Positions 3,885-42,795 of a stretch of DNA of 64,000 nt are shown here, piece after piece. The notes below the pieces were generated by a model. That model was not told the DNA's origin and searched no databases. It worked only from the letters and a program-made list of their open reading frames with translations. How positions within the stretch are numbered: position 1 is the stretch's first letter; each line of letters begins with the position of its first letter. The stretch is taken from assembly GCA_965248695.1 (NCBI GenBank), contig CBDFKD010000002.1, positions 3,264,001 to 3,328,000 of the forward strand, given 5' to 3'. Made by a program: the position numbers and the translations under genes. Source of the DNA: Acidobacteriota bacterium (GTDB lineage Bacteria; Acidobacteriota; UBA890; WLXD01).

Positions 3885-4706
3885 CTACTGGTTCGACGGG
3901 CGCTCGGGCTGCTGATCGTCCGGCTGTTGATCAGGCTGCTCGAAGCGGCCTCGCCCGCGACCGCCCATCGACTCCTGGTGCGCCTCCAGCTCCGCGCGGG
4001 TTACCTGCCCGTTGCCATCGGCGTCGGCCCTCGATAGTCGTTCCCAGAGCATCTCCGGCAGCTGCTCGGCGCTGAGGTAGCCAACACCATCAGCGTCGAA
4101 TCGGGAAAACAGGCCATCGAGCATGCGTTCACGCATGGCGTCGCGAGCCTCACCCCAATCCCCGCGTTCGGCGCCTTGCCCACCAGCCGGGCCAGCGGGC
4201 CTGGCGGCTCGACCACGACCTCCGAATCTGCCGGCTCGGAAGCCTCCGGACCAGTGGCGACCACCCCGAAATCCGGGACGGCTGGTCCAGAGGCCCCCGC
4301 CGGCGAACCCTCTCCGACCGAAACGAGCCAAGTGACGGCCACCACGACCGCCGACGAATCCGCCAAAGCCGCGCCCAGGACCGAAGCGGCGCCCGGCAGA
4401 GAATCCCCGGCCGGCGGCAACCCCCCCAACAAAGGCTCGACGTCCCATGCTCCGGCTCTGTCGCGGCATCAACTCGTCGACGCCGACGCTGCCGTCGCCG
4501 TCTGCATCAAGCGCTGTGAGTGACTCCGAGGCCGAAGCGATCTCTGCCGCCGAGATCTCACCGTCGCCATCGGTATCCAGTGCGTTCAACAGCTGCGGCG
4601 CTTGGCCCCAGCCGCCAGGCTCTTCATCAGGCGCCTGTGCCAAGGCACTCCCGGCGCAGACCAGCACAGCGACCACCGCCGCCGCGGATGTCTTGAAAGC
4701 ACTCAT
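3885..4706 (-). CDS. Secreted EF-hand protein with Gly/Arg/Phe-rich low-complexity linker
   Basis: Signal peptide ending ALA-Q; EF-hand loops DTDGDGEISAAE, DADGDGSVGVDE, DADGVGYLSAEQ, DADGNGQVTRAE; RBS GAAGGAGG. Confidence 0.85.
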   Translation of the reverse strand: MSAFKTSAAAVVAVLVCAGSALAQAPDEEPGGWGQAPQLLNALDTDGDGEISAAEIASASESLTALDADGDGSVGVDELMPRQSRSMGRRAFVGGVAAGRGFSAGRRFGPGRGFGGFVGGRGGRHLARFGRRGFAGGGLWTSRPGFRGGRHWSGGFRAGRFGGRGRAARPAGPAGGQGAERGDWGEARDAMRERMLDGLFSRFDADGVGYLSAEQLPEMLWERLSRADADGNGQVTRAELEAHQESMGGRGRGRFEQPDQQPDDQQPERPSNQ

Positions 4707-5825: not shown

Positions 5826-6803
5826 TCACGCACTGAAGAACAAGAGAACCAACATCAGCCAAGTCACCGCAAAGCCACACCGTTGACGCATCCACCCCAA
5901 CTGAGTGTCACGCTCCATCAGATGTTCGACCCTCTCGGAGAGCATCGGACGGACGCCCAGCAACTGCGGAACGAACTGCAACCGGCGGGTCAGCTCCGTG
6001 CGGCTGGCGGCGGCGTATCGGTACGTTTTCATCAGCATTCCGGCGTAGGTCTCGGGGCCGCCCAGAACATCGACCGCGACGTCGTCGCAAGCCTTCTCCT
6101 CCTCCCGGTGCAGCTGCGCCGCTATCACCCCGGCGAACGGGTTCAGGGTCGAGAAGACGCGCACGCCCTCGGACGAGAAACAGTTTCCCGGCTGCCGCAG
6201 GTAGATATGGGCCAGTTCGTGGGCCAGGGCGCCGCGCAATTCTGCGTCCCCCAGCCGCGCCAAGAGATTCGACGGAAAGACGATCGCCGGGTCACCCTCG
6301 ACGATCACCGCCGGTGAGGCAAGATTCGTCTGCGTCAGGAGCCGCGGGCGCTGAGGCAACCCTTCGAACCGGCAGCGAGCCCGGATGCGCTCGGCGTTGG
6401 CTCGATACAACGCCATGACCTCATCGAGCGCCGCCGCCAGGCGTCCGTCCTCCGGCACCGGCGTCGCTCCCGTCAGCAGCGCCCCTTGCGCTCGCCGGGC
6501 GAGGGCCCACCGCACGAGAACCGCGATGCCGGTGAGCAGGATGAACACCGGCAGGACCGTCTGCGTCGGTACCGCTTGGCGCGCCCAATCGCCGAATACC
6601 TGCCGCGGCCACGCAACCACCAGCGCCAGCCCGAGCAACACCAGCGTCGACTTCAACAGCGGTGCCAGGTACAGGCACAGGCGCAACTTGCCATGCTGAA
6701 TACGAAAGACATGTACGGCCAGATGGACAAAGGCCCAGGTCAGGCTGCCGGCAACGAGGGCCGGCAGCACGTTGTTCAGCAGGAACTGGCTCGCGACGCT
6801 CAT
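5826..6803 (-). CDS. M56 family (BlaR1-like) membrane metallopeptidase, no C-terminal sensor domain
   Basis: Start MSVASQF overlaps the blaI stop (ATGA); N-terminal TM helices; ALAHELAHI, REEEKACDD, LSERVEHL motifs. Confidence 0.9.
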   Translation of the reverse strand: MSVASQFLLNNVLPALVAGSLTWAFVHLAVHVFRIQHGKLRLCLYLAPLLKSTLVLLGLALVVAWPRQVFGDWARQAVPTQTVLPVFILLTGIAVLVRWALARRAQGALLTGATPVPEDGRLAAALDEVMALYRANAERIRARCRFEGLPQRPRLLTQTNLASPAVIVEGDPAIVFPSNLLARLGDAELRGALAHELAHIYLRQPGNCFSSEGVRVFSTLNPFAGVIAAQLHREEEKACDDVAVDVLGGPETYAGMLMKTYRYAAASRTELTRRLQFVPQLLGVRPMLSERVEHLMERDTQLGWMRQRCGFAVTWLMLVLLFFSA

Positions 6804-7204
6804 CGCTGTCGGTCCTGGCGTTTTCGGCGGATCAGTTCCTCGAGCCGCCGCAGTTCGTCGTCGTCGACGCGCTCGTCCGACTCGATCAGGTGCGCGATGG
6901 CCCGGCTCGTCGAGCCGCCGTAGACTCGCCCAACGACCGATTGCAGCAGAGAGCCTGCGACCGCATCCTGGCTGGCCGCCGGCCTGTAGACATAGGCCCG
7001 GCCGTCCTTGTGGCGCTTCAGCAGCCCCTTGTCGGCGAGCCGAGTCATTACCGTCATGACCGTGGTGTAGGCAGCACCGCGCGTGGGCTCGAGGGCACGG
7101 CGCACATCTTCGACCGTCGCCTCCGTCGAATCCCACACGACCCGCATGATCTCCGCTTCCAGATCTCCCAGCCGATCCGGACTGCCGGGTTCCTGCCTGC
7201 TCAT
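6800..7204 (-). CDS. BlaI/MecI/CopY family repressor
   Basis: LGDLEAEIMRVVW, AYTTVMTVMTRLADKGLL, GRAYVY, DELRRLEELI. Confidence 0.95.
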   Translation of the reverse strand: MSRQEPGSPDRLGDLEAEIMRVVWDSTEATVEDVRRALEPTRGAAYTTVMTVMTRLADKGLLKRHKDGRAYVYRPAASQDAVAGSLLQSVVGRVYGGSTSRAIAHLIESDERVDDDELRRLEELIRRKRQDRQR

Positions 7205-7236: not shown

Positions 7237-8760
7237 TCAAGTCGGCATCGCCTGACGCAGTGACCTGACCAGCGAGATGGCCATTGCGATGCCGATGAAC
7301 AGCACCGGGAACGATGCGATCAACACACCCAGCCGGATGACCTGGAGCCCACCGACGAACATCATGAACACCGGCAATACGCCGATCACCAGCGCCCAGA
7401 ACAGGCGGTGCTCGCGGCCAGGGTTCTGGTTTGCCCGCAACTCGGCAGTGACGCTGGCGGCGAGGGTGTACGAGGCCGAATCGTAGGTCGTGGCTACGGA
7501 GATGCAGCTCACCACCGCGAGGACGGCGAGCGCGAGCGCACCGTAGGGCAGCGACGCGACGATCTGCGCGGTGGCGACGTTCATGCCGCTCTCCGCCAGT
7601 ATGGCGCTCAACGGCAGGACACCCTCCAGCTCCAAGTACAGGGCGTAGTTGCCCATGATGAAGTAGAAGATCCAGCATCCCAGCGTGCCGAAGAAGATCA
7701 TCGAAACGACGACCTGTCGGATCGTGCGCCCACGGGAGATGCGGGTCACGAAGATGCCGATCACCGGGGCAAAGGCGATCCACCAGGCCCAGTAGAAGAT
7801 CGTCCAGGCCTCTACGAAGCCGGTCGACTCGACGGCGTCGGTCCAGGTCATCATGCGGACGAAGTTCTGCACCATGAAGCCGACGGTGTCGGTGGAGGTC
7901 TTGAGGATGAACAGTGTCGGCCCCACCAGCAGCATGTAGCCCAGGAAGCACAGCACCAGCACCACGTTGAGGTCGCTCAGCCGCTTGATGCCGCGCTCGA
8001 GCCCCTTGTAGACGCTGACCGCGAACAGCCCGACGCAGAAGATCACCACGCCGGCCTCGAGGCTGAACGACGACTCGATGCCGAACAGCTCGGCGAGCAC
8101 CGCGGCGATCATCGGGGCGATTAGCCCCAGCGACGTGCCGGCTCCACCGATAAGGCCGAGCATGGCGGCAAGGTTGATGAGCCGTCCGACGACGCTGCGA
8201 TGACCCTCTGGTCCGAGCAACGCATGGCACGACGTGCTGGCGCACAGGTGCGGCACGCGCTCGACGTAGAACGGGTAGGCAATCGCCACCGTGGCCAGCG
8301 CGTACAGGCTCCAGGCAGTCACTCCCCAGTGGAACGGCCCGTAGGCGCTGGCCCACGCGATCGCCTCGACGGAGCGCGGCTCGGCACCGAACGGTGGCGC
8401 ATTGTAGTAGCTGATCCACTCCACGCCTCCAAACACTAGAAGCGACGCACCGGTGCCGGCGCAGAACAGCATCCCGGCCCAGGAGAAGGTCGAGAAGTCC
8501 GGCCGCTCGCCTTCGCCCCCCAGCCGTACCTGACCATGGCGGCTCGTGGCCAGCCAGATGAGGAACAGAATCGCGCCGATGGCGCACCACTGGTACAGGA
8601 ATCCGAAGTTGTGCGTCAGGCCATCGTACAGATCAGAGACCAAGGCCCCGGCGCGATCTGGATCGACACCGAGGGGAATACTCGCGGCGGCGACCACGCC
8701 GATGACGACGGTGAACATTACCCAGTCGATCTTCGGATCTGCCGGTGCGCCGCCACGCAT
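7237..8760 (-). CDS. BCCT family (betaine/carnitine/choline) transporter
   Basis: FSWAGMLFCAG, FHWG, GIKRLSDLN, WTIFYWAWWIAFAP..FVTRISRGRTIR signature; ATG overlaps the ALDH stop (TGATG). Confidence 0.95.
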   Translation of the reverse strand: MRGGAPADPKIDWVMFTVVIGVVAAASIPLGVDPDRAGALVSDLYDGLTHNFGFLYQWCAIGAILFLIWLATSRHGQVRLGGEGERPDFSTFSWAGMLFCAGTGASLLVFGGVEWISYYNAPPFGAEPRSVEAIAWASAYGPFHWGVTAWSLYALATVAIAYPFYVERVPHLCASTSCHALLGPEGHRSVVGRLINLAAMLGLIGGAGTSLGLIAPMIAAVLAELFGIESSFSLEAGVVIFCVGLFAVSVYKGLERGIKRLSDLNVVLVLCFLGYMLLVGPTLFILKTSTDTVGFMVQNFVRMMTWTDAVESTGFVEAWTIFYWAWWIAFAPVIGIFVTRISRGRTIRQVVVSMIFFGTLGCWIFYFIMGNYALYLELEGVLPLSAILAESGMNVATAQIVASLPYGALALAVLAVVSCISVATTYDSASYTLAASVTAELRANQNPGREHRLFWALVIGVLPVFMMFVGGLQVIRLGVLIASFPVLFIGIAMAISLVRSLRQAMPT

Positions 8761-10244
8761 CAGCGCATCACGAAGGGGTTCGCCATCGGCTCGCTGGAGG
8801 TGTTGACCCACACGGACTTGGAGCGCGTGTAGTCGTAGATCGCCTGCAGTCCGCTCTCGCGACCGTAACCGCTGTTCTTGAAGCCGCCGAACTCGGCCAC
8901 CGGGGAGACCACGCGGTAGGTGTTGACCCACACGATGCCGGCGCGGATGGCGCGGGTCATGCGTAACGCGCGGGCGCTGTCGCGGGTGAAGATGCCAGCC
9001 GCAAGGCCATACTTGGTGTCGTTGGCAGCCGCCACGACCTCCTCCTCGGTGCTGAATCGCAGCACGCTGAGCACCGGCCCGAACAGTTCGGTATCGACGA
9101 TCTGATCGCCCTGACCGGTGCACTCGATGATCGTCGGCTCGAAGAACCACCCGTCCCCCAGTCCCGACGGGCGGCCACCGCCGTGGAGGATCCTGGCACC
9201 CTGCTCCCGGGCCACCTCGATCTCCCGCTCGATCCTCTGTAGCTGGGCCTCGGTGGCCAGCGGGCCCATCTGAGTCTCATCAGCCAGCGGATCGCCGATG
9301 CGGATCTGGTCGGCTCTTTCGACCAGGCCTGCGAGGAACTGGTCGGCGATGCTCTCGTGTAGGTAGAGGCGAGATCCGGCGACACAGCTCTGACCGCTGG
9401 CGCCGAAGATGCTGGCCACGACGCCATTCGTGGCGCTCTCCATGTCGGCATCCTCGAAGACGACGACCGGAGACTTGCCGCCGAGCTCCAGCGACACCTG
9501 GGCGAGATTCTCCGCCGAGTTGCGAACCACGTGCCGCGCGGTCTCGGGACCGCCGGTGAAGCTGATGCGGGCCACGAGGGGGTGCGCGGTCAGCGCTTGC
9601 CCGCACGGTTGGCCGTGGCCGGAGATGATGTTGACCACGCCGGCAGGAAAGCCGGCCTCCTCGACGACGCGACCGAACTCCAGCAGCGGCGCCGAGGCGT
9701 CCTCGGAGGCCTTCACGACCACCGTGTTGCCGGCGGCGAGCGCCGGTCCCACCTTGACCGCCAGCAGGAACAGCTGCGAGTTCCAGGGAACCACTGCTGC
9801 GACAACACCGAGCGGCTCGCGCGTCGTGAACACCAGCAGGTCCGGCTTGTCGATGGGCAGGGTCTCGCCGTGTACCTTGTCGGCCAGACCGGCGTAGTAG
9901 TGGAAGTACTCGGCGATGTAGCCGGCCTGCCAGCGAGTCTCCTTGAGCAACTTGCCGGTATCGACGGTCTCGGTCCGCCCCAGGGCTTCCGATCGTTCGG
10001 CGAGCAGGTCACCGAGCTTGCGCAGGTACTTACCGCGCGCGGTCGGAGTGGTAGCGGCCCAGGGGCCCTCGGTGAATGCGCGGTGTGCCGCCGCCACGGC
10101 ACGGTTGACGTCCGCCTCGCTGGCATCGGGGATGCTGGCCCACGTCTCGCCGGTGGCGGGATTGACACTGTCGAAGCGGCGATCCCCCTCGGCGTCGACC
10201 CACTCGCCGTCGATCAGCATCTGGTATCGCTCGTTGCTACCCAT
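8760..10244 (-). CDS. Aldehyde dehydrogenase, TgnC-like
   Basis: PWNSQLFL, KASED, FTGGPETARHVVRNSAEN, LELGGKSP, GQSCVAG, ELFGP and C-terminal PFVMR, as recalled for the trigonelline-pathway dehydrogenase. Confidence 0.9.
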   Translation of the reverse strand: MGSNERYQMLIDGEWVDAEGDRRFDSVNPATGETWASIPDASEADVNRAVAAAHRAFTEGPWAATTPTARGKYLRKLGDLLAERSEALGRTETVDTGKLLKETRWQAGYIAEYFHYYAGLADKVHGETLPIDKPDLLVFTTREPLGVVAAVVPWNSQLFLLAVKVGPALAAGNTVVVKASEDASAPLLEFGRVVEEAGFPAGVVNIISGHGQPCGQALTAHPLVARISFTGGPETARHVVRNSAENLAQVSLELGGKSPVVVFEDADMESATNGVVASIFGASGQSCVAGSRLYLHESIADQFLAGLVERADQIRIGDPLADETQMGPLATEAQLQRIEREIEVAREQGARILHGGGRPSGLGDGWFFEPTIIECTGQGDQIVDTELFGPVLSVLRFSTEEEVVAAANDTKYGLAAGIFTRDSARALRMTRAIRAGIVWVNTYRVVSPVAEFGGFKNSGYGRESGLQAIYDYTRSKSVWVNTSSEPMANPFVMR

Positions 10245-10435
10245 GCTCTCCAACCTCACTTTGGCCAGCTTCTTCGTTGTCTTTTCCCGGCGCCGCGAGC
10301 CACACGAGTCGCGTGCAGGGGGTAGTTGTGCCTTTTGGTCACCTCGACATCAAGTGACGACCGGCAACCACGCGCATAAGATGGGGGCCCCGCGGAGCGG
10401 GGGGTACGCGCAATTCGACCCATGAGGCGGGCATT

Positions 10436-10861
10436 TTGGGCACCGGACGCGAGGTAATCGGCGGCGCACTGAGCATCGGGGGGCGCAGGCTGTCCCTTTC
10501 CAGGGCGATCCGCGCCGGCGACTTCGTCTTCCTGACCGGACAGATCCCGATGCGGGATGGCGAGGTGGTAACGGAGGGGTCGGTCGAGGAGCAGACGCGT
10601 ATCGTCCTCGATCTGATCAAGGCGACGCTGGCGGAGGCGGATTGCGGCCTCGGGGACGTGGTGAAGTCGATGATCTGGCTCAGGGATCGGGCGGATTTCC
10701 CCGGCTTCAACACTGTCTATGGTGACTACTTCCCGGACGAGCCGCCCGCCAGATCGGCGATCATTAGCGAGTTATTGGTGGACGTACGGGTCGAGATCGA
10801 GGTCGTCGCCTATAAGCCGCAGGAATGCCCTGGTCCGCAAACGCCGACGGTGCCGGCGTGA
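10436..10861 (+). CDS. RidA/YjgF family protein
   Basis: SRAIRAGDFVFLTGQIP, FPGFNTVYGDYF..PPARS, VEIEVVAY; start codon uncertain. Confidence 0.9.
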   Translation: MGTGREVIGGALSIGGRRLSLSRAIRAGDFVFLTGQIPMRDGEVVTEGSVEEQTRIVLDLIKATLAEADCGLGDVVKSMIWLRDRADFPGFNTVYGDYFPDEPPARSAIISELLVDVRVEIEVVAYKPQECPGPQTPTVPA

Positions 10862-11928
10862 AGTTCGACCTGGTGGTCAACCTGGAACGCATCGACGACT
10901 CCGTCGAAATGCAGGACGTCCTGTCGCATACCACCGAGATGGTGGAGATGGCCGACGCGGCCGGCTTCGCGATCGTCTGGGCCGCCGAGCATCACGCCAT
11001 CGAGATGACCATCGCGCCCTCGCCGTTCCAGCTGCTGACCCACTTCGCGGCGCGCACCTCGCAGATCCGTCTCGGTACGGCTGTGGTAGTGGCACCGTAC
11101 TGGCACCCGATCAAGCTCGCTGGCGAGGCGGCGCTCTTCGACCTGCTGTCCGGCGGCCGATTGGAGTTCGGCATCGGGCGTGGCGCCTATCAGCGCGAAT
11201 TCGACCGGCTCATGGACGGAATGCACCAGCATCTGGGCGTACCGATGATGCTCGAGATGCTGCCGGCAGTGAAGGCACTCTGGCAGGGCGACTACGAGCA
11301 CGACGGGGAGTACTGGAAGTTCCCGGCGTCGACCTCGTGCCCGAAGCCGTTGCAGAAACCGCACCCGCCGATCTGGGTGGCGGCCCGCGATCCCGGAACC
11401 TTCAACGCGTCGGTAGCCGAGGGTCACAGCATCGTGACCTGGGCTCTGACGCGACCCTTCGCCGAGGTGGAGCTCTACAAGAGCCACTTCGAGAAGGCGC
11501 TGGCCGCCAGCCCCGGGGTCGAGCGACCGCGCTTCGGGACCATGCGTCACGTTGGCGTGTACTGCAGCGCCGGCGGCGAAGCGCCGTTTATCCAGGCCAT
11601 TCAACGACAGGGACGAGCGTTCGAGAACCTCTTCCGCAACCTGGCGCCGGTCGTCGACGGCTTCCCACAGGATCCGGATCCGGAATTGCTGACGAACCAG
11701 GCGGAGTACGAACCCGACAACCTGATGGCCAACCTGATCCTGGGCACCCCGGCCGAGGTCATCGAAAAGCTGCAGCCATACGCCGACCTCGGTGTGGACC
11801 ACTTCGTGTTCAACTCCGCCTACGGGCTGGCGCCTGAACACCAGAAGAACTCGCTGCGACTGTTCATCGACGAGGTCATGCCGGCGTTCGTCGAGGGCTC
11901 CAGTCCCGACGCGACGACCGGCCACTAG
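10858..11928 (+). CDS. Luciferase-like (LLM) flavin-dependent monooxygenase, TgnB-like
   Basis: WAAEHH, TIAPSPF, RLGTAVVVAPYWHPIKLAGEAA, GRGAYQREF, PPIWVAARDP, FIDEVMPAF; GTG start overlaps the RidA stop. Confidence 0.9.
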   Translation: MKFDLVVNLERIDDSVEMQDVLSHTTEMVEMADAAGFAIVWAAEHHAIEMTIAPSPFQLLTHFAARTSQIRLGTAVVVAPYWHPIKLAGEAALFDLLSGGRLEFGIGRGAYQREFDRLMDGMHQHLGVPMMLEMLPAVKALWQGDYEHDGEYWKFPASTSCPKPLQKPHPPIWVAARDPGTFNASVAEGHSIVTWALTRPFAEVELYKSHFEKALAASPGVERPRFGTMRHVGVYCSAGGEAPFIQAIQRQGRAFENLFRNLAPVVDGFPQDPDPELLTNQAEYEPDNLMANLILGTPAEVIEKLQPYADLGVDHFVFNSAYGLAPEHQKNSLRLFIDEVMPAFVEGSSPDATTGH

Positions 11929-11936
11929 GAACGAGC

Positions 11937-12743
11937 ATGGTCATGGACGGTCCGACGCCGGGCACCGCGTGGACCTCCGCGGGGCAAGGACCACCGATCG
12001 TCCTCGTACACGGACTCGGGCTCAACCAGGGCTTGTGGCACTGGCTGGCTCCGGCGCTGTCGCCCAGCTACCGCGTCATCACATACGACCTGATCGGGCA
12101 CGGCACGAGTCCCAGGCCGCCGACGCCGTATTCGATACAGGACTTCGTGGACCAGCTCGACGAGCTAACGGCAGGGCTCGAGCTCGACTCCTTTGTGCTG
12201 GTCGGGTTCTCCCTCGGCGGGCTGATCGCGCAGGCCTTCGCTGTCGCCTATCCGGAGCGCGTGCCAGCGCTGGCCATCCTGCATTCGGCCCACGCCCGGA
12301 CAGAAGCCGAGACCGCCGCCGTGCTCGAGCGGGCGCGCGACGCCGCCATCCACGGACCCGGAGCCATGGTACCGGCGGCGCTCGATCGCTGGTTTAGCCC
12401 CGAATTCGCCCAACGCTCCCCCGATACGCTGCGTCGCGTCGCAGGCTGGATCGAGGCCAACGATGCCGCCGCCTTCGCGGCCGCGTATCGCGTGCTGGTC
12501 GACGCGGACGCGGAACTAGTCAATGCCCTGCACCGCATCGCGTGCCCGACGCTGGTGGTCACCGGCTCGGAGGACCACGGCAACTCCCCCGAGATGGCGC
12601 AGCGAATGGCGCGCGTCATCCCGGTTGCCGAATGCCATATTCTCCCGGGCCTGCGCCACATGGCGCTGGCCGAAGACCCGCAGTCGACGCTCGACATCCT
12701 GTTGCCGTTTCTGCGTCGGACGATCGCCGATGACCACTCGTAG
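11937..12743 (+). CDS. Alpha/beta fold hydrolase (TgnD / enol-lactonase-like)
   Basis: LVHGLG, YDLIGHG, GFSLGG nucleophile elbow, LPGLRHMA. Confidence 0.9.
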   Translation: MVMDGPTPGTAWTSAGQGPPIVLVHGLGLNQGLWHWLAPALSPSYRVITYDLIGHGTSPRPPTPYSIQDFVDQLDELTAGLELDSFVLVGFSLGGLIAQAFAVAYPERVPALAILHSAHARTEAETAAVLERARDAAIHGPGAMVPAALDRWFSPEFAQRSPDTLRRVAGWIEANDAAAFAAAYRVLVDADAELVNALHRIACPTLVVTGSEDHGNSPEMAQRMARVIPVAECHILPGLRHMALAEDPQSTLDILLPFLRRTIADDHS

Positions 12744-13773
12744 CTCCGTGATCGGGATCGTCGGCACCGGGGTTATCGGCGGCGGCTGGGCGCTGCACTT
12801 CCTGGCTCAGGGGCTCGACGTGGTGGCGTTCGATCCGCACCCGCAAGCACGTGGTCGGATGGATCGTCTGACCGAGACAGCCTGGCCGGCGCTCGAGAAG
12901 CTCGGTCTGAAACCCGGCGCCTCGCTGCGGCGACTCCGCTACGCCGACACGCTCGAAGACGCCGTCGCGGATGTCGATGTCGTGCAGGAGAGCACTCCGG
13001 AGCACCTCGAATCGAAAGTCGAGGTCTTCCGTCGTATGGACGCCGCCGCGCCGCCGGACACGCTGTTGCTGTCGAGCACCTCGGGCCTCTCGATGTCGGA
13101 CATGCAGGTCGCCTGTGCGCATCCCGAACGCACCGCCGTCGGTCACCCCTTCAACCCGCCCTATCTCATTCCGCTGGTCGAGGTGGTCGGTGGGCGCCGC
13201 ACCAGCACCGCAACGGTCGACCGTGCAGCAGCGTTCTATTCTGCTCACGGCAAGCGCGTCGTGAAGCTCCGCAAGGAGCTGCCGGGATTCATCGCCGCGC
13301 GGCTCCAGGAGGCCATGTGGCGCGAGATGCTCCACATGGTTGCCAACGACGAGGCCACGGTGCAGGAGATCGACGAAGCCATCGTCGCCGGACCGGGGTT
13401 ACGGTGGGCGATCATGGGACCAGGCTTGACGTTTCATGTTGCCGGCGGTGAAGGGGGAATGGCGCACGTGCTCGATCAGTTCGGTCCGGCGCTCAAGTGG
13501 CCGTGGACGCGGCTGGAAGCACCCGAGCTCACCGACGACCTCCGCCGCCGCATGATCGAGGGCTGTGAGGAAGAGGCCGGTGGGCGCAGCATCGCCGAGC
13601 TCATCCGGGAGCGCGATGACACTCTGATCGAGATTCTGCGGACCATCGAGCGGCGCGCCACCACGCCACGCCCCGAGGTGGAACGCCCGGTTCCTGATGG
13701 CGCCGTCGCGGAAGGCGCCGATACGGAGGGCCTCCATTCAGACGGCCCCGACACGGAGAACACCGATGAGTGA
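12730..13773 (+). CDS. L-carnitine dehydrogenase-like 3-hydroxyacyl-CoA dehydrogenase family protein
   Basis: GTGVIGGGW, VQESTPE, SSTSG, GHPFNPPYLIPLVEVV, RLQEAMWRE, GPGLRWA, QFGPALKWPWT. Confidence 0.85.
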   Translation: MTTRSSVIGIVGTGVIGGGWALHFLAQGLDVVAFDPHPQARGRMDRLTETAWPALEKLGLKPGASLRRLRYADTLEDAVADVDVVQESTPEHLESKVEVFRRMDAAAPPDTLLLSSTSGLSMSDMQVACAHPERTAVGHPFNPPYLIPLVEVVGGRRTSTATVDRAAAFYSAHGKRVVKLRKELPGFIAARLQEAMWREMLHMVANDEATVQEIDEAIVAGPGLRWAIMGPGLTFHVAGGEGGMAHVLDQFGPALKWPWTRLEAPELTDDLRRRMIEGCEEEAGGRSIAELIRERDDTLIEILRTIERRATTPRPEVERPVPDGAVAEGADTEGLHSDGPDTENTDE

Positions 13774-14566
13774 CGCCGTCCAGGTCTCCACGCGAGACGG
13801 AGTGCTGGAGATCACCCTCGACCGGCCGCCGGTCAACGCCATCGACATACCCACCAGCGTGGCCCTCGGCGAGGCCTTCGTACAGCTGCGCGACGATCCC
13901 GACCTGCGCGTCGGCATCATCACCGGCGGCGGCGAGAAGACGTTCTGTGCCGGGTGGGACTTGAAGGCGCTGGATGCCGGCGACATGGCGCTGGAGCGCT
14001 GGTGGGAGGCGGACTACGGCCCGGGCGGATTCGCCGGGCTCACCGAGCTCTGGGACCTCCACAAGCCGGTGATCGCGGCGCTCAACGGCCACGCCATCGG
14101 TGGCGGAATGGAGCTCGCGCTTGCCTGCGATCTACTGCTGGCGGCGAGCCACGTGAGCTTCCGGTTGCCGGAGCTGCCGCTCGGTATGGTGCCCGACGCC
14201 GGTGCCGTGCAGCGGTTGCCGCGCCGCCTGCCGCGCAACATCGCCATGGAGATGCTCTACCTCGGTCGCTGGCTGACGGCGGAAGAGGCGGCGCACTTCG
14301 GGCTCGTCAACGCCGTCGTCGAACCGACCGCGCTGATGGACCGGGCGCGCGAATGGGCGGCTCAGATTGCCGAGGTCGCCCCGCTGGCAGTCCAGGCAAT
14401 GAAGGAAGTGACCGGCGGACTGGACGGCATGGCGCCGCAGCGCGCCTATGAGGTGCTGCGCCAGGGTAGGTTCCAGCACTACGAACGGATGATGACGTCG
14501 GAGGACGCCAAAGAGGGCGTCAGCGCCTTCGTGGAAAAACGCGACCCGACGTTCAAGAGCGAGTAG
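13766..14566 (+). CDS. Enoyl-CoA hydratase, carnitinyl/crotonobetainyl-CoA hydratase (CaiD-like)
   Basis: FCAGWDLKA, DYGPGGFAGLTE, KPVIAALNG.AIGGG.ELALACD, SEDAKEG..AFVEKR. Confidence 0.88.
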   Translation: MSDAVQVSTRDGVLEITLDRPPVNAIDIPTSVALGEAFVQLRDDPDLRVGIITGGGEKTFCAGWDLKALDAGDMALERWWEADYGPGGFAGLTELWDLHKPVIAALNGHAIGGGMELALACDLLLAASHVSFRLPELPLGMVPDAGAVQRLPRRLPRNIAMEMLYLGRWLTAEEAAHFGLVNAVVEPTALMDRAREWAAQIAEVAPLAVQAMKEVTGGLDGMAPQRAYEVLRQGRFQHYERMMTSEDAKEGVSAFVEKRDPTFKSE

Positions 14567-14571
14567 GCCAG

Positions 14572-16632
14572 ATGGATCTCGTGCGCCTGCTATCTCCGCG
14601 TGCCGTGGCATTCGTCGGCGGACGAATCGCCGAGATGGCCATCCGACGCTGCCAGCAGCTCGGCTATTCGGGCGAGATCATGCCGGTTCATCCGCGACGC
14701 GATTCGGTCGCCGGCCTACGGTGCTATCCGAGCCTCGAGTCGCTGCCGTGCATACCCGACGCGGCCTACGTCGGGGTCAACCGCGACCTCACGATCGACA
14801 TCGTCGGACGCCTCGCCGCCATGGGCGCAGGCGGCTGCGTCTGCTACGCCGCCGGATTCGCCGAGATGGGCGACACCGGGCAGGAGTACCAGGATCGCCT
14901 GGTCGAGGCCGCCGGCAAGATGCCCTTGGTCGGCCCCAATTGCTTCGGCTTCGTGAACCTGGTGGATGACTGCGCCCTGTGGCCCTACCTGTTCGGCGGC
15001 GAGCACGTGGAGCAGGGTGTGGCGCTGATCTCCCAGAGCGGCAACATCGCCATGAACCTGACGATGAACCGGCGCTCGGTGCGATTCACCCACGTGATCG
15101 GCACCAGGAACCAGGCGGTGCTGGGGCCCGGCGACTATCTCGATGCGCTGCTGGACGATCCTCGGGTGCGCGCCGTGGGCATGTACCTGGAAGGGCTCGA
15201 CGATGTCGCTCGTTTCGGCGCGGCGGCGACGCGGGCGCTGGATCAGAGTGTGCCGGTAGTGGTCATGAAGGTTGGACGCACGGAAGCGGCGGCCGAGCGG
15301 GCCAGCACGCACACGAGCTCGCTGACCGGCGCGGACACGGTGGTCGACGCCTTCTTCAAACGCCTGGGGGTTACGCGGGTCGAGTCGCTGAACCAGCTGC
15401 TGGAGACGCTGAAGGTATTCGACCGGGCAGGACCGTTGCCCGGCAACGACGTCGTGACGCTATCGTGCTCGGGCGGAGAAGCCGCCATTCTGGCGGATCT
15501 CACCGAGCAGCGCGGGCTGAGCACCTCGGCGTTCTCGGATCAACAGCGCCGTGATCTCGAGGCCGAATTCGCCGACTACGTCACCGTCTCCAACCCCTTC
15601 GACTACAACACCTCTATCTGGGGGGACGGAGCCGCGCAGGAGCGCTGCTTCACGACCTCGATGAGCGGCGCGCACGATGCCGCGCTGCTGATCTACGACC
15701 ATCCAACGGTCAAGGCAGACGAGGTCGACGAGTGGATCGTCGCTCTCGACGCGTTCGTGAGGGCGCACGAGGCAACCGGTATGCCGTCATTTGTGGTCAG
15801 CACGATCACCGAGCTGTTGCCCGCAGCGCTGCGCCAGCGGCTGATCGAACGTGGCGTCACGCCACTGCAGGGGCTCGAGGATGGAATCTTTGCAATCGCC
15901 GCGGCAGCCAACTACGCCCGCCGACGCGCCGCTGCACCTGCCGCGATCGCGGTTCCCGGCAACGCCCCGGCTGATGGCGTCTGGCTCGACGAGTGGGAGA
16001 GCAAGCAACAACTTGCCGCGTGCGGCCTCGACTCCCCGCTGGGGGCCGTCGGGGCTGCCGACGAGCTACCGGCGATCGCCGATCGCCTCGGCTACCCGGT
16101 GGCTGTCAAGGCCGTCGGGGCCGAGTTCGCCCACAAGACCGAGCTCGGAGCCGTGGCGCTTGGCCTCGACCGCGAAGCAGCACTCGTGGCCGCCGTCGCC
16201 GAGATCACCGAGTCGGCGGCGCGAACCGGCAACCGGCCGCGCCGCTTCCTCGTGGAGCGCATGGTCGAAGATGCGGTGGCTGAGCTCCTCATTGGTGTGA
16301 AACGAGATCCGCAGTTCGGCTTGATCCTGGTCATCGGCAGCGGCGGAGTGCTCGTGGAGCTGGCCGCCGACACCGCGCTCCTGCTACTGCCAATCGACCG
16401 GACGGCAGCCGCTGCAGCGCTCGCTTCGCTGAAGATCGATCGCTTGCTAGACGGGTACCGCGGCGCGCCAGCCGGCGATCGCGACGCGGCGATCGATGCC
16501 ATCGTCGCGGTGGCGGACCTGGCGATCGGCCATTGGGATACCCTCCAGGAGCTCGATATCAACCCCCTCATGGTTCGTCCGGTTGGCCGCGGTGCCGTAG
16601 CCGCCGACGCCCTGATCCGGATGTCACTATAG
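14572..16632 (+). CDS. Acetate--CoA ligase family (ADP-forming acyl-CoA synthetase, fused subunits)
   Basis: CoA-binding N-terminus, GPNCFG, SQSG, HTSSLTG phospho-His, SCSGGE, NPFDY, ATP-grasp HKTELGAV...ELDINPL. Confidence 0.9.
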   Translation: MDLVRLLSPRAVAFVGGRIAEMAIRRCQQLGYSGEIMPVHPRRDSVAGLRCYPSLESLPCIPDAAYVGVNRDLTIDIVGRLAAMGAGGCVCYAAGFAEMGDTGQEYQDRLVEAAGKMPLVGPNCFGFVNLVDDCALWPYLFGGEHVEQGVALISQSGNIAMNLTMNRRSVRFTHVIGTRNQAVLGPGDYLDALLDDPRVRAVGMYLEGLDDVARFGAAATRALDQSVPVVVMKVGRTEAAAERASTHTSSLTGADTVVDAFFKRLGVTRVESLNQLLETLKVFDRAGPLPGNDVVTLSCSGGEAAILADLTEQRGLSTSAFSDQQRRDLEAEFADYVTVSNPFDYNTSIWGDGAAQERCFTTSMSGAHDAALLIYDHPTVKADEVDEWIVALDAFVRAHEATGMPSFVVSTITELLPAALRQRLIERGVTPLQGLEDGIFAIAAAANYARRRAAAPAAIAVPGNAPADGVWLDEWESKQQLAACGLDSPLGAVGAADELPAIADRLGYPVAVKAVGAEFAHKTELGAVALGLDREAALVAAVAEITESAARTGNRPRRFLVERMVEDAVAELLIGVKRDPQFGLILVIGSGGVLVELAADTALLLLPIDRTAAAAALASLKIDRLLDGYRGAPAGDRDAAIDAIVAVADLAIGHWDTLQELDINPLMVRPVGRGAVAADALIRMSL

Positions 16633-16681
16633 AACCCAACAGCTCGCGACAAGGAAAGTCGATGACCGGTGCTCCTGCATC

Positions 16682-17563
16682 ATGAGTACTAGCGGCGTCA
16701 TCATCACCTGCGCCGTCACCGGCTCGGGAGATACGCTCGACAAGCATCCGGATGTGCCGGTCACCCCGCAGCAGGTTGCGGACGCCTGTGTCGAGGCAGC
16801 GAATGCCGGCGCCGCGGTGGTCCACATTCACGTGCGCGATCCGGAGACGGGCAAGGGCAGCCGAAATGCCGATCTGTTTCGCGACACTGTCGAGCGCCTA
16901 CGGAGCCGCAACTCCGAAGTGATCGTCAACCTGACCTCGGGGATGGGCGGCGACTTCGTTCCCGGCGAGGACGACCCTTCCGTGGCCGGACCCGGAACCG
17001 ACCTCATCGGGCCACTCGAGCGACTGGTCCATGTCGAGGAGCTGCGACCCGATATCTGCAGCCTCGATTGCGGCAGCATGAACTTCGGCCTCGGTCACGA
17101 GGTCTACATCAACACCACCGCCAATCTCGAGATCATGGCGCGCCGTTGTCAGGAGATCGGCGTCAAGCCCGAGCTCGAGGTCTTCGATCTGGGGCAAATC
17201 CGTTGCGCCAAGTACCTTCGAGATAAGGGCCTGGTCGATGATCCGCCCATGTTCCAGATTTGCCTCGGCCTGGCGTGGGGGGCCGGTGCCGACGCCGAGT
17301 CGATGTTGGCGATGCGCAACGAGCTGCCAGAGGGCGCCAACTGGTTCGCCTTCGGCGTCGGGCGCCAGCAGATGCCGATGGCGGCTCAGAGCGTGCTGCT
17401 TGGAGGCCACGTTCGCGTCGGCCTCGAAGACAACCTCTACCTCAGCCGCGGCGTCCTGGCCAGCAACGGCGATCTGGTGGCGAAGGCTGTACGGATCGTC
17501 GAAGAGCTCGGTGCGCGCGTGCTCGAACCCGCTGAGGCGCGAGCGGTTCTAGGGATCGCCTGA
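16682..17563 (+). CDS. Beta-keto acid cleavage enzyme (BKACE/Kce family; 3-dehydrocarnitine cleavage CdhC-like)
   Basis: ITCAVTG, AGAAVVHIHVRD, NLTSGMGG, SLDCGSMNF, KPELEVFD, HVRVGLEDN. Confidence 0.92.
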   Translation: MSTSGVIITCAVTGSGDTLDKHPDVPVTPQQVADACVEAANAGAAVVHIHVRDPETGKGSRNADLFRDTVERLRSRNSEVIVNLTSGMGGDFVPGEDDPSVAGPGTDLIGPLERLVHVEELRPDICSLDCGSMNFGLGHEVYINTTANLEIMARRCQEIGVKPELEVFDLGQIRCAKYLRDKGLVDDPPMFQICLGLAWGAGADAESMLAMRNELPEGANWFAFGVGRQQMPMAAQSVLLGGHVRVGLEDNLYLSRGVLASNGDLVAKAVRIVEELGARVLEPAEARAVLGIA

Positions 17564-17815: not shown

Positions 17816-19816
17816 GTGCATCGAACCCGTAAAGCCGTCTGCAATGGACCGCTGCGAGCGCTGGTCGCGAGTGCGCTTGCGACCGCCGCGCCCTCGAGCG
17901 CCGCGGCGCAGACACCGTCCGAGGAGCTCGACCGCATCGTGTCGACCGTCGTCGCGGACATTGACACACGGTCCGTTCGCGGTGGCGAAGCGACAATCAG
18001 CTGGCACACTGACGGGCCGGTTCTGAGCGTCGACCTGAAGCTCGCCGACGAGCTGGAACTGCCCATCGTCGAGCTCGCCCATCATCCCGAGGTTGATGGC
18101 GGCTGTACGACGGTTTCGCGCTTCGAGCACAGCCGACGCAACCGGCTCGGTGGACGATTTGCTGCCGTCGGCAATGATCCGTCGCTGGCGGTTGCCGAGC
18201 TGACCGCGGACGCGAGCGGCGCGCGCCACCTGCGGTTCGCGTATCGGCAGACACCCGACGGCGAGGCTCGGCTCCGCTTGAACCTCTACGACCCCGACCC
18301 CACCGATCACACGATCCACTACCTCGACGGTCGCGCCTTCGATTCGATCCGGTTCTGGATCAGGAATCCGGGCGGCAGCCCGGCCGTGGATATCGGCATC
18401 GCCGACGCAGCCGGCGACACGCCCATACACGTGGGCACGCTCGACGAGCTTGCTACTGCACACACGGGCGTCGAGTGGCGCCTGGTCTCGCTCCCCCTGC
18501 AGGAGATGTCACAGCTTCTCGACCGTAGCCGCCTGGCGACCCTCCACCTGCAACCGTCGCGGCCGGGCAGCGGCACCATCGAGATCGACAACCTCTCCCT
18601 TTGTCGCGGCAGCGCGGAGCCCGATCGCCCCGGCCGCACGAGCGCGCCAGCCATCGCTGGGAACGGGAAATCTCTCTGGGTTTGGCATACAAGCGACCTG
18701 ATGGTCGATGGGGCCGCGCTCCAGGAGCTGACGGCGATGGTGCGCCGGCGTGGGATCGACCGCGTGTACCTGCAGCTTCCGAGCGCGCTCACGCAGGCGG
18801 GGAGTAGTGCCGCCGACAATGTCGCGCTAGAAGCCGTGGGCGGCGCCACGCTGACGGCGTTGGAAGCCGTCATCGAGGCGCTGAACAAGGCTGGAGCCGC
18901 CGTCGACGCCCTGGACGGAGCTGCCAGCTTCGCCCTGCCCGAAAACCACGCTGCGGTCGAACGCGACGTCGCGGCGGTAATCCGTTACAACGAAGCCGCT
19001 CCCTCGGGAGCGCGGTTCGCCGGCCTGCACTACGACATCGAGCCCTACCTGCTACCGGGCTTCGGCACCGAGCTGCGGGTCGAGATCGTCGCCGGGTATC
19101 TGACGATATTGGAACGCATCGCGGCACTCGCCGCTCCGGCGAACTTGCGGTTCGAGGTGGCGATCCCGTTCTGGTTCGACTCGATCCGTATGCACCGACC
19201 GAGTACGGAAGTCGACGGGGGTCTCAGCTTCCGGGTGCTCAGCGACGCAGTCATCGACGTCGTCGACTCGGTAGCGATCATGGACTACCGCACCCGGGCT
19301 GACGGCACGAATGGCACCGTGGCACTGGCTGCGAGCGAGCTCGAGTACGCCTCCGAGCGCGGCAAGCGGGTTCGTATCGGTCTGGAGACCGGGTTTCTTC
19401 CAGATCAGGACTTGCTGCGCTTCGAGGGCGAGGGCGGTCGTGGGATGCCACACGGCGACTCGTCGCGGTCTTGGATTGTCGCCGGTACCTCCGCCGAGGG
19501 GGCACGGACATACGTCGTCCCGGCAGCGCAGCTGGCCCAACTCCCGGCCACGCTGCTCAACGACGGCATCGCGGCGGCCAGCGTGCGCCACTGGCAGGCC
19601 GCCAGGCCGGTGCGCGTCGACGCCCGCCGCCTGACGTTCCACGATGTCGGCATCGAGCGTATGCGGTCCGTGATCGAGGAATCCACCGACCAGATGCGAC
19701 GCTATGCCGCATTCGAGGGCTTCGCGATTCACTACGACCGACCCTATCGTCGCCTGCTGGACAGGGCCTCGGTGCCCACCGTGGACGACGACGGCCGGCA
19801 CCGCCGCCAGCGGTAG
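17816..19816 (+). CDS. Secreted protein: carbohydrate-binding-like domain plus putative glycoside hydrolase-like TIM barrel
   Basis: Signal peptide; DSIRFWI...WRLVSLPL...IEIDNL (CBM11/CIA30-like); LWVW, GLHYDIEPY, IPFWF, IMDYR, IGLET, FAIHY motifs. Confidence 0.6.
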   Translation: MHRTRKAVCNGPLRALVASALATAAPSSAAAQTPSEELDRIVSTVVADIDTRSVRGGEATISWHTDGPVLSVDLKLADELELPIVELAHHPEVDGGCTTVSRFEHSRRNRLGGRFAAVGNDPSLAVAELTADASGARHLRFAYRQTPDGEARLRLNLYDPDPTDHTIHYLDGRAFDSIRFWIRNPGGSPAVDIGIADAAGDTPIHVGTLDELATAHTGVEWRLVSLPLQEMSQLLDRSRLATLHLQPSRPGSGTIEIDNLSLCRGSAEPDRPGRTSAPAIAGNGKSLWVWHTSDLMVDGAALQELTAMVRRRGIDRVYLQLPSALTQAGSSAADNVALEAVGGATLTALEAVIEALNKAGAAVDALDGAASFALPENHAAVERDVAAVIRYNEAAPSGARFAGLHYDIEPYLLPGFGTELRVEIVAGYLTILERIAALAAPANLRFEVAIPFWFDSIRMHRPSTEVDGGLSFRVLSDAVIDVVDSVAIMDYRTRADGTNGTVALAASELEYASERGKRVRIGLETGFLPDQDLLRFEGEGGRGMPHGDSSRSWIVAGTSAEGARTYVVPAAQLAQLPATLLNDGIAAASVRHWQAARPVRVDARRLTFHDVGIERMRSVIEESTDQMRRYAAFEGFAIHYDRPYRRLLDRASVPTVDDDGRHRRQR

Positions 19817-42700: not shown

Positions 42701-42795
42701 CACCGATGTGCTTCTCGGCGGCGGATGCCGACCGGCTGGTAGAGACGCTCGATCGGATCCTCGGGGAGGATGCGCTGACCGCGGCCTGCCGCTAG
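39727..42795 (+). CDS. Fusion: APH-family phosphotransferase + M23-like domain + class III PLP aminotransferase (hydroxylysine kinase/phospho-lyase-like)
   Basis: [21 protein letters not shown]; HLGIDLF...LYGHLS...WPPHLHFQ; [39 protein letters not shown]. Confidence 0.92.

Follow-up and report, generated by a model that had tools for sequence, protein, structure and literature searches.

A trigonelline-type oxygenase module joined to a carnitine-type CoA module in an acidobacterial genome: a candidate coupled route for betaine degradation

The described systems most similar to the nine-gene cluster analysed here, located at positions 7237-17563 of a 64-kb stretch of an Acidobacteriota genome (assembly GCA_965248695.1, contig CBDFKD010000002.1, positions 3,264,001 to 3,328,000; the whole stretch is hereafter called the window, and coordinates without a prefix refer to it), are the trigonelline clusters known as tgn in Acinetobacter baylyi ADP1, as the trc region of S. 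meliloti pSymA, and on plasmid At (pAt) of Agrobacterium fabrum C58, as well as the carnitine/gamma-butyrobetaine route of Sinorhizobium meliloti and Pseudomonas aeruginosa. In the former, TgnC is reportedly an aldehyde dehydrogenase (ALDH), TgnD a hydrolase and TgnE a succinate semialdehyde dehydrogenase (SSADH), with a role also assigned to TgnF, which we take to be a PF06684-type protein; classical mapping work reportedly put trc beside nifAB. The latter is said to be encoded by a CoA ligase, an acyl-CoA dehydrogenase (ACAD), a crotonobetainyl-CoA hydratase, a carnitine dehydrogenase with a thioesterase domain and a beta-keto acid cleavage enzyme (BKACE). Each half of the cluster is of a known kind, and their union looks to be undescribed: a full-text search, in which subscription papers and supplements were thinly covered, returned no description of a luciferase-like monooxygenase (LLM) joined to carnitine-dehydrogenase and BKACE genes. 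It is suggested here, with about even confidence, that the nine genes make up one coupled betaine-degrading pathway, horizontally acquired, in which the trigonelline-type and carnitine-type modules work together; judging from the sequences, the substrate is probably a betaine which is neither plain trigonelline nor plain carnitine.

The cluster comprises two divergent operons, as a preliminary description of this DNA had it, and the gene identities given there were borne out by Pfam and NCBIfam profile matches, from which the gene content is taken. On the minus strand, an NAD(P)-dependent ALDH (8760-10244, alternative GTG start at 10259; PF00171, 558.6 bits) is followed by a 507-aa BCCT-family betaine/carnitine/choline transporter (7237-8760; PF02028, 460.4 bits), the stop of the former and the start of the latter sharing TGATG. 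Beyond a 176-bp divergent intergenic region (10260-10435), presumed to hold the promoters and operators of both operons, seven genes lie on the plus strand: a RidA-family protein, predicted to be an enamine/imine deaminase (10436-10861; TTG start, PF01042, 95 bits, 'PARS' arginine present), a TgnB-like LLM, i.e. a luciferase-like (group C) flavin monooxygenase (10858-11928; GTG start, PF00296, 172 bits), a PcaD/TgnD-like alpha/beta-fold hydrolase (11937-12743; PF00561, 108 bits, GFSLGG nucleophile motif), a carnitine-dehydrogenase-like NAD-dependent 3-hydroxy-acid dehydrogenase (CDH) in a short form of 347 aa without a thioesterase domain (12730-13773; PF02737/PF00725), a CaiD-like enoyl-CoA hydratase (ECH) of the crotonase fold (13766-14566; PF00378, 216.8 bits), a fused alpha/beta nucleoside diphosphate (NDP)-forming (ADP-forming) acyl-CoA synthetase (14572-16632; PF13380, PF13607 and PF13549) and a BKACE (16682-17563; PF05853, 338.5 bits). 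All nine frames are open, and the GxSxG motif of the hydrolase, the His motif of the ligase and the His/His/Glu columns of the BKACE are intact. Four junctions overlap, namely ALDH/BCCT, RidA/LLM (4 nt, GTGA), hydrolase/dehydrogenase and dehydrogenase/hydratase (8 nt), and the remaining spacings are 8 nt (LLM to hydrolase), 5 nt (hydratase to ligase) and 49 nt (ligase to BKACE). At the hydrolase/dehydrogenase junction, 14 nt are shared by the end of the last 'trigonelline-like' gene and the beginning of the first 'carnitine-like' one, so that the two halves do not form separate transcription units here. No sigma-70-like promoter was found in the divergent region with a model that may not suit an Acidobacterium, terminator-like sites were found only within genes, no regulator gene lies within the cluster, the G+C content shows no anomaly, and no further gene of the window looks betaine-related.

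As in the tgn, trc and pAt systems, an LLM of the two-component type, an ALDH resembling betaine-aldehyde dehydrogenase (BADH) and a PcaD-like hydrolase stand side by side near a betaine importer. Identity values were obtained against the proteins of pAt and of S. meliloti pSymA and amount to 41-50% for the LLM (49-50% to that of pAt and 41-43% to the single pSymA match), 46-58% for the ALDH (58% with the neighbour of the LLM on pSymA and 46% with its pAt counterpart) and 32-37% for the hydrolase (37% and 32% to the LLM-adjacent hydrolases of pAt and pSymA, respectively). The pAt cluster has the order flavin reductase-ALDH-LLM-hydrolase-CMD-NIPSNAP-PF06684-2-hydroxyacid dehydrogenase beside ProXWV, and the pSymA cluster reads PF06684-hydrolase-flavin reductase-LLM-ALDH-PotABCD-like transporter-SSADH and lies about 3 kb from nifB and nifA. 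A strain without pSymA was unable to grow on trigonelline as sole carbon source, according to PMC4207669. The cluster in the window differs from these in having no adjacent flavin reductase, SSADH, PF06684, CMD or NIPSNAP gene, and in adding RidA and the four carnitine-type genes; no SSADH gene was found in the cluster, and nothing in the genome matches the pSymA SSADH better than the ALDH of the cluster does (36% identity).

Homologues of the LLM at 65-94% identity are very numerous (at least 120), and three of the 120 close homologues listed bear the JGI name 'trigonelline monooxygenase, oxygenase component' at 67-76% identity, a name also carried by the third-ranked ESM Atlas cluster. The best PDB match scores only 95.6 bits (7bip). 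In an 84-row tree, the two rhizobial LLMs are set off from a clade holding the 82 LLMs of the cluster's kind (support 98). The ALDH, whose best NCBIfam match is BADH (494.9 bits vs a cut-off of 668.6), is divergently adjacent to the RidA-LLM operon, in keeping with the role that TgnC is said to have. The hydrolase scores 163.5-175.8 bits on PcaD models (PcaD itself 163.5 vs a cut-off of 255.85), and its PDB matches are esterases and an enol-lactonase (84-92 bits), with E-2-(acetamidomethylene)succinate hydrolase at 55.7 bits; RidA scores 91.6 on TIGR00004 (cut-off 106.25). None of the nine cluster proteins reaches an NCBIfam equivalog cut-off, so the protein names rest on comparison. By homology and neighbourhood the LLM, ALDH and hydrolase can be classed as trigonelline-type, which agrees with the preliminary description, though the set is incomplete here: genes of the TgnA, TgnE and PF06684 types are missing from the cluster.

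With the carnitine/gamma-butyrobetaine route the cluster shares an NDP-forming ligase, a CaiD-like hydratase, a carnitine-dehydrogenase-like enzyme and a BKACE, and it differs from that route in its short dehydrogenase without thioesterase, in the lack of an ACAD gene in the cluster, in scores below the equivalog cut-offs and in a BKACE belonging to another clade. The dehydrogenase scores 370.9 bits on the L-carnitine dehydrogenase model PRK07066 (cut-off 414) and 317 on PRK07531, the 495-aa form with thioesterase (cut-off 592). The S. meliloti dehydrogenase is described in PMC12482172 as having a dual role which includes betainyl-CoA hydrolysis. The hydratase reaches 320.8 bits on the crotonobetainyl-CoA hydratase model NF002936 (cut-off 500), the next model (228) lying about 90 bits lower. 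The BKACE, placed in the same operon as the dehydrogenase, scores 256 on the Kce model (cut-off 382), 185 on the 3-oxoadipate:acetyl-CoA acetyltransferase model and 333 against PDB 3c6c; its homologues bear the uninformative names 'DUF849' and 'Kce protein', and no carnitine-specific BKACE model was found among the NCBIfam matches. The ligase is colinear with the dimethylsulfoniopropionate (DMSP)-CoA ligase/lyase DddX (7cm9) over residues 11-682 (215 bits) and scores 233 and 211 bits against the archaeal ADP-forming 3-hydroxypropionate and 4-hydroxybutyrate CoA ligases. By enzyme type, then, the CoA genes resemble those of the carnitine/gamma-butyrobetaine route, with all scores below NCBIfam equivalog cut-offs; of the carnitine module proposed earlier, the enzyme families hold and the carnitine specificity finds no equivalog match.

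The union of the two halves recurs in many other bacteria, and for that reason one unit is favoured over a chance pairing. In the scan for LLM loci, one genome per species was taken and the best 80 of 560 confirmed loci (57-94% LLM identity) were compared; 38 reference proteins were placed on them by tblastn with at least half of the query covered, and counts were made at 40% identity or more. Hydratase, dehydrogenase and BKACE were all found within the flanks in 20 of the 80 loci (15 of the 42 having full 10-kb flanks), belonging to 15 Alphaproteobacteria, three Gammaproteobacteria, one unclassified member of the Pseudomonadota and one member of the Acidobacteriota, and at least two of the five CoA-side genes occur in 24 of the 80. 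Given two BKACE genes in the 5.89-Mb genome, the chance of a BKACE lying within 10 kb of a given gene is about 0.7% by an arithmetic estimate, which the LLM-BKACE linkage in 20 of 80 loci exceeds. The joined arrangement noticed in the preliminary description is thus present in other genomes as well. Neighbours of the LLM include the hydrolase (33/80), ALDH (26/80, 59-76% identity), RidA (18/80, 59-95% identity) and CMD-family proteins (10/80).

The linkage of the halves persists across several gene orders. The nearest public locus, L003 from an acidobacterial metagenome-assembled genome, has 81-97% protein identity across the cluster and the same flanking genes. Locus L009 has the order RidA-LLM-hydrolase-ACAD-CDH-ECH-ligase-BKACE with a flavin reductase, ALDH and CMD gene upstream, which is the order of the window plus three genes (ACAD, flavin reductase and CMD); a flavin reductase adjoins the cluster in L013 also. 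On plasmid pW43B of Parasedimentitalea marina, the RefSeq annotation gives ALDH-LLM-'carnitinyl-CoA dehydratase'-HCDH, then GlxA, then BKACE-four ABC genes-ACAD-ligase, and this joined cluster is adjoined by a divergent operon RidA-hydrolase-'CoA transferase'-PF06684. Loci L026-L031 read RidA-HisA-like-ECH-CDH-BKACE-LLM, and L081 and L143 have inverted gene orders. Five genomes whose LLM loci seemed to have no ALDH and hydrolase genes were found to contain both, adjacent to each other, at 72-76% and 48-51% identity (in G001 and G002 just beyond the fetched flank), and the idea that the LLM works without these two enzymes in loci such as L023 was dropped.

The 'CoA transferase' of pW43B (L084:5028-7151, minus strand) consists of 707 aa and combines a family III CoA-transferase with a flavin reductase of the TgnA/HpaC type. 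Residues 1-390 score 432 bits on the succinyl-CoA:mesaconate model (cut-off 700), and the part from residue 399 onward is an HpaC/C1-type flavin reductase of the same type as those of pAt and pSymA. The fusion recurs in four loci, being full-length in L084 and L099 and extending to query residue 552-556 in L051 and L122; the transferase occurs alone in L048 and L050, the reductase alone in L009, L013, L082 and L156, and L096 is cut by the contig end. If the two halves served unrelated pathways, it would be difficult to see why the predicted electron supplier of the oxygenase should be fused to a CoA-transferase.

A reciprocal view was obtained from a BKACE-centred metagenome scan, of which the best 80 of 592 loci (54-66% identity, many contigs being short) were used. 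None of the 29 dehydrogenases linked to an LLM exceeds 356 aa or has a C-terminal thioesterase extension, and 11 of the 32 unlinked ones have 454-568 aa, the size of the thioesterase-fused form. The BKACE tree contains 102 rows (100 loci, the window and the second copy of the genome; L128 was omitted as its match was too short) and was inferred in a quick IQ-TREE run under LG+G4, with SH-aLRT as the sole measure of support. On its midpoint split, 27 of the 29 LLM-linked rows fall on one side and 10 of the 11 thioesterase-type rows on the other, where it should be taken into account that LLM-centred loci, the window and the P. marina plasmid together supply 22 of these 29 linked rows. The BKACE of the window groups with the LLM-linked ones, apart from the genome's second copy, which forms a pair with a dehydrogenase at C2:4512500-4514387 (L085:8495-10376; 58% and 45% identity to the BKACE and dehydrogenase of the window). 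This second pair groups with the thioesterase-type clusters; it is surrounded by genes for TPR, DUF6687 and CBM9 proteins, and neither a transporter nor a regulator adjoins it. The LLM-linked CoA genes are accordingly described here as a distinct subtype without thioesterase.

The importer varies among the carriers of the unit. The BCCT of the window exceeds the cut-off of the family model TIGR00842 (422 vs 407.55) and scores 399.7 on the CaiT model (cut-off 541), with the glycine-betaine and BetT equivalogs also below cut-off. A BCCT gene beside the LLM was found in only one of the 80 related loci (L003) and is thereby known only from the genus of the window, the relatives having PotABCD-like or ProU-type (ProV/ProW) ABC importers, so that the shared BCCT importer of the preliminary description holds for this genus alone. 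Regulators of the GlxA family resembling GbdR (231.9 bits vs a cut-off of 480) lie near the unit in relatives. Because of these importers (BCCT, ProV/ProW) and GbdR-like regulators around the unit, a betaine is the likely substrate. A second BCCT of this genome, 67% identical to that of the window, is found at C2:2991941-2993425 (L086:6855-9472); it adjoins a homocysteine S-methyltransferase/BHMT-like gene, and the two may be a betaine demethylation pair.

With regard to the origin of the cluster, the LLM is present in all four other genomes of the same genus, and a search of 36 further acidobacterial relatives did not find it. Outside the genus, its closest relatives among the matches listed (the best 80 of 560 loci) are proteobacterial, with 75-79% identity. 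This distribution reads as horizontal acquisition at the genus level.

A mechanism for the coupled pathway may be put forward, at a confidence somewhat short of even, as a hybrid in which a TgnB-type oxygenase opens or cleaves the substrate next to the cationic nitrogen and the same skeleton is then processed via CoA thioesters, hydration, oxidation of a 3-hydroxy acid and BKACE. An N-methylpyridinium or related betaine would thereby be degraded in a CoA-dependent manner, by a route widespread among Alpha- and Gammaproteobacteria that one acidobacterial genus has gained. The BCCT would import the betaine, and the LLM, supplied with FMNH2 by a reductase encoded elsewhere, would act at the carbon adjoining the cationic nitrogen, in the manner of TgnB. 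The ALDH would oxidise the resulting aldehyde or lactol, after which the hydrolase and RidA could take off the formyl and methylamine (enamine/imine) remnants. A CoA ester would then be formed by the ADP-forming ligase (by the CoA-transferase in relatives) and hydrated by the CaiD-like hydratase; the released 3-hydroxy acid would be oxidised by the carnitine-dehydrogenase-like enzyme, and the BKACE would finally use acetyl-CoA to cleave the 3-keto acid, giving acetoacetate and a shortened acyl-CoA. Every chemical step and the order of the halves are our proposal, whereas the homologies, operon structure, recurrence, subtype distinction and fusion are observed.

Several points weigh against a single coupled pathway. 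The main weakness is that no convincing chemistry could be drawn up that leads from the trigonelline intermediates in the literature to the sequence of ligase, hydratase, dehydrogenase and BKACE. The five CoA-side enzyme types mirror the route from gamma-butyrobetaine to glycine betaine, and an independent carnitine-type pathway would fit them just as well. The window contains no ACAD gene, the nearest genome homologue of the L009 cluster ACAD (73% identity) being located at C2:4880332, solitary among unrelated genes. It also contains no flavin reductase (TgnA) gene, the single PF01613 match of the genome lying about 1.7 Mb off at C2:1560111-1560542, and PF06684 was found neither in the genome (96.4% complete) nor in 14 control genomes, which makes this a weak negative. 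Both halves are common on their own, as LLM-ALDH-hydrolase clusters without CoA genes and as a second architecture, BKACE-CDH(long)-ACAD-ligase-ECH without LLM, in the BKACE scan; in the BKACE-centred set, the only one unbiased for the LLM, an LLM is present in 7 of 80 loci, many of them on short contigs. The deep split of the BKACE tree has a support of only 87 (quick search, SH-aLRT alone), and the BKACEs of L081 and L143 form a small Tgn-linked subclade on the thioesterase-type side. In L015, separate LysR, GntR and GlxA regulators stand beside the parts, which looks modular.

Some of these points suit a composite island of two independent complete pathways, which we consider rather unlikely. 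Here a trigonelline-type route would yield methylamine and succinate semialdehyde and a carnitine/crotonobetaine route glycine betaine and acetoacetate, the two being co-located since their substrates co-occur and being served by one promiscuous BCCT. Genes for trigonelline, stachydrine and carnitine catabolism are reportedly found together on pSym. The separate regulators of L015 agree with such an island, as do the occurrence of each module alone elsewhere with the same enzyme types as in the published pathways and the best scores of the CoA side on carnitine models (PRK07066, 370.9 bits; CaiD, 320.8 bits). In the LLM tree, moreover, CoA-linked and unlinked loci are intermixed, with at least eight label changes forced by well-supported branches, which suggests that the LLM reaction is the same in both contexts. 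Against an island speak the interleaving of the parts within single operons and a linkage that outlasts several rearrangements, the CoA-transferase-flavin reductase fusions, the separate subtype of the linked CoA genes without thioesterase and the single importer per cluster; furthermore, a BKACE-dehydrogenase pair of the canonical type is already found elsewhere in the genome, and the trigonelline set of the cluster is incomplete (no reductase, SSADH or PF06684). In view of the interleaved modules, the distinct CoA subtype and the fusion, 'one locus, two osmolytes' is regarded as the weaker of the two readings that the preliminary description offered.

It is quite improbable, in our estimation, that the LLM opens no pyridinium ring and acts instead on an acyclic carnitine-type onium compound or a by-product, for example by C-N cleavage of betainyl-CoA or betaine to trimethylamine and an aldehyde, or by a Baeyer-Villiger-type oxidation of 3-dehydrocarnitine or trimethylaminoacetone with subsequent hydrolysis of the ester. 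Such a reaction would account for the LLM-hydrolase pair being the most constant unit (33 of 80 loci, often a two-gene operon beside LysR), a usual layout for an oxygenase with an esterase or lactonase, and for the need of a separate hydrolase where the linked dehydrogenases have no thioesterase; the ALDH scores best on betaine-aldehyde and aminobutyraldehyde dehydrogenase models, and other LLM contexts contain enzymes of glyoxylate or onium-aldehyde type (a thiamine pyrophosphate (TPP) enzyme nearest to sulfoacetaldehyde acetyltransferase, 428.5 vs a cut-off of 620, a class II aldolase and GbcA-like Rieske proteins). Yet the LLM, ALDH and hydrolase, together with PF06684 in relatives, are homologous to neighbours in the rhizobial trigonelline-type clusters, both the JGI names and the ESM Atlas cluster suggest TgnB, no Baeyer-Villiger LLM of the diketocamphane type is found among the 22 PDB matches, and no precedent for the reaction was found. 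Highly improbable is a cluster unrelated to betaines and dealing with an uncharged organic acid or lactone, such as a beta-ketoadipate-like route with the BKACE as 3-oxoadipate:acetyl-CoA transferase and an incidental BCCT. The PcaD scores of the hydrolase, the 185 bits of the BKACE on the 3-oxoadipate model and the CMD-family genes in 10 of 80 loci would be in its favour, but none of these scores reaches its cut-off or the level of the carnitine-type and Kce scores, betaine-type importers and regulators (BCCT, ProV/ProW, GbdR-like) surround the unit, and the ALDH-BCCT pair is translationally coupled.

A number of other described systems resemble the cluster in part. The Rut pyrimidine pathway has the same trio of folds side by side (RutA, an LLM; RutC, a RidA protein; RutD, a hydrolase), and by analogy the LLM-RidA-hydrolase trio suggests that a bond next to nitrogen is cleaved oxygenolytically and that the enamine/imine products are then cleaned up. 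It differs in its models, with RutC at 59.8 bits (cut-off 169.1), RutD at 63.7 (cut-off 238.5) and no RutA model among the 25 LLM matches listed. From the Escherichia coli cai operon (CaiT, CaiB, CaiD), CaiT and CaiD are the best specific NCBIfam matches of the BCCT and the hydratase, both below cut-off, but the cai route is a reductive one that runs anaerobically with an AMP-forming ligase and a CoA-transferase, and both a dehydrogenase and a BKACE are absent from it. Among NDP-forming acyl-CoA synthetases of solved structure, DddX alone is known to act on an onium carboxylate (DMSP), and it is colinear with the ligase of the window; its 215 bits are overall no higher than those of the archaeal hydroxy-acid CoA ligases. 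The Rut pathway, the beta-ketoadipate-like, DMSP (DddX) and F420-dependent readings were rejected, with scores below cut-off or non-specific. The homarine operon homABCDER (Nat Microbiol 2026, PMC13236597) acts on an N-methylpyridinium betaine and has an ALDH-like enzyme and, in one species, a betaine transporter beside the operon. Its other parts differ, with HomA binding FAD, HomB, and HomC resembling a peptidase, and its product is N-methylglutamate; the paper mentions no LLM, dehydrogenase or BKACE, and the words 'monooxygenase' and 'carnitine' do not occur in it. The domain set as described there (FAD-binding HomA, peptidase-like HomC) did not correspond to the Pfam content of the window, and the cluster was not identified with that operon.

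Some LLM and flanking loci have features of their own. In the alphaproteobacterial L026 (2977-7232; also in L027 and L029-L031), there is a divergent gene of the histidine ammonia-lyase family, and a HisA-like TIM-barrel gene is located between RidA and the hydratase. Twelve gammaproteobacterial loci (L037, L041, L055, L059, L060, L063, L069, L070, L072, L075, L078 and L080), with an LLM of 57-59% identity, have another conserved context: TetR-hydrolase-TPP enzyme (nearest to sulfoacetaldehyde acetyltransferase)-LLM-DUF805-GbcA-like Rieske-class II aldolase-MerR-Rieske fusion. Loci L039, L040, L043, L061, L065 and L074 (SAR116 (Puniceispirillum), Pelagibius and others) have the order ALDH-LLM-(PF06684)-hydrolase-TPP enzyme and may represent a marine trigonelline-type form in which the TPP enzyme replaces SSADH. 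In the window, a BlaI-like repressor and a BlaR1/M56-like membrane protease (5826-7204, minus strand) lie directly upstream of the BCCT; they are kept in L003 and probably have no connection with the cluster. The BKACE is followed directly by a 666-aa open reading frame (17816-19816, plus strand) with no Pfam or NCBIfam match, occurring in the same place in L003 only (76%). The window also encodes a 273-aa protein with repeated EF-hand calcium-binding motifs (3885-4706, minus strand), with weak XopAW and lanmodulin model matches both below cut-off, and a 1022-aa open reading frame (39727-42795, plus strand) uniting phosphotransferase (APH), peptidase M23 and class III aminotransferase domains.

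Trigonelline, homarine, carnitine and gamma-butyrobetaine are major nitrogen-rich osmolytes that plants, algae and animals release, and their breakdown has been solved compound by compound. Cultured carriers of the joined cluster exist, e.g. P. marina W43 with its plasmid pW43B, where the 707-aa fusion is annotated merely as 'CoA transferase'. For the LLM-linked subtype, the annotations 'carnitine dehydrogenase', 'carnitinyl-CoA dehydratase' and '3-keto-5-aminohexanoate cleavage' may be wrong. A trigonelline-type oxygenase coupled to a BKACE module without thioesterase would mean either that a substrate has gone unrecognised or that a known pathway has a CoA-dependent branch not recognised so far.

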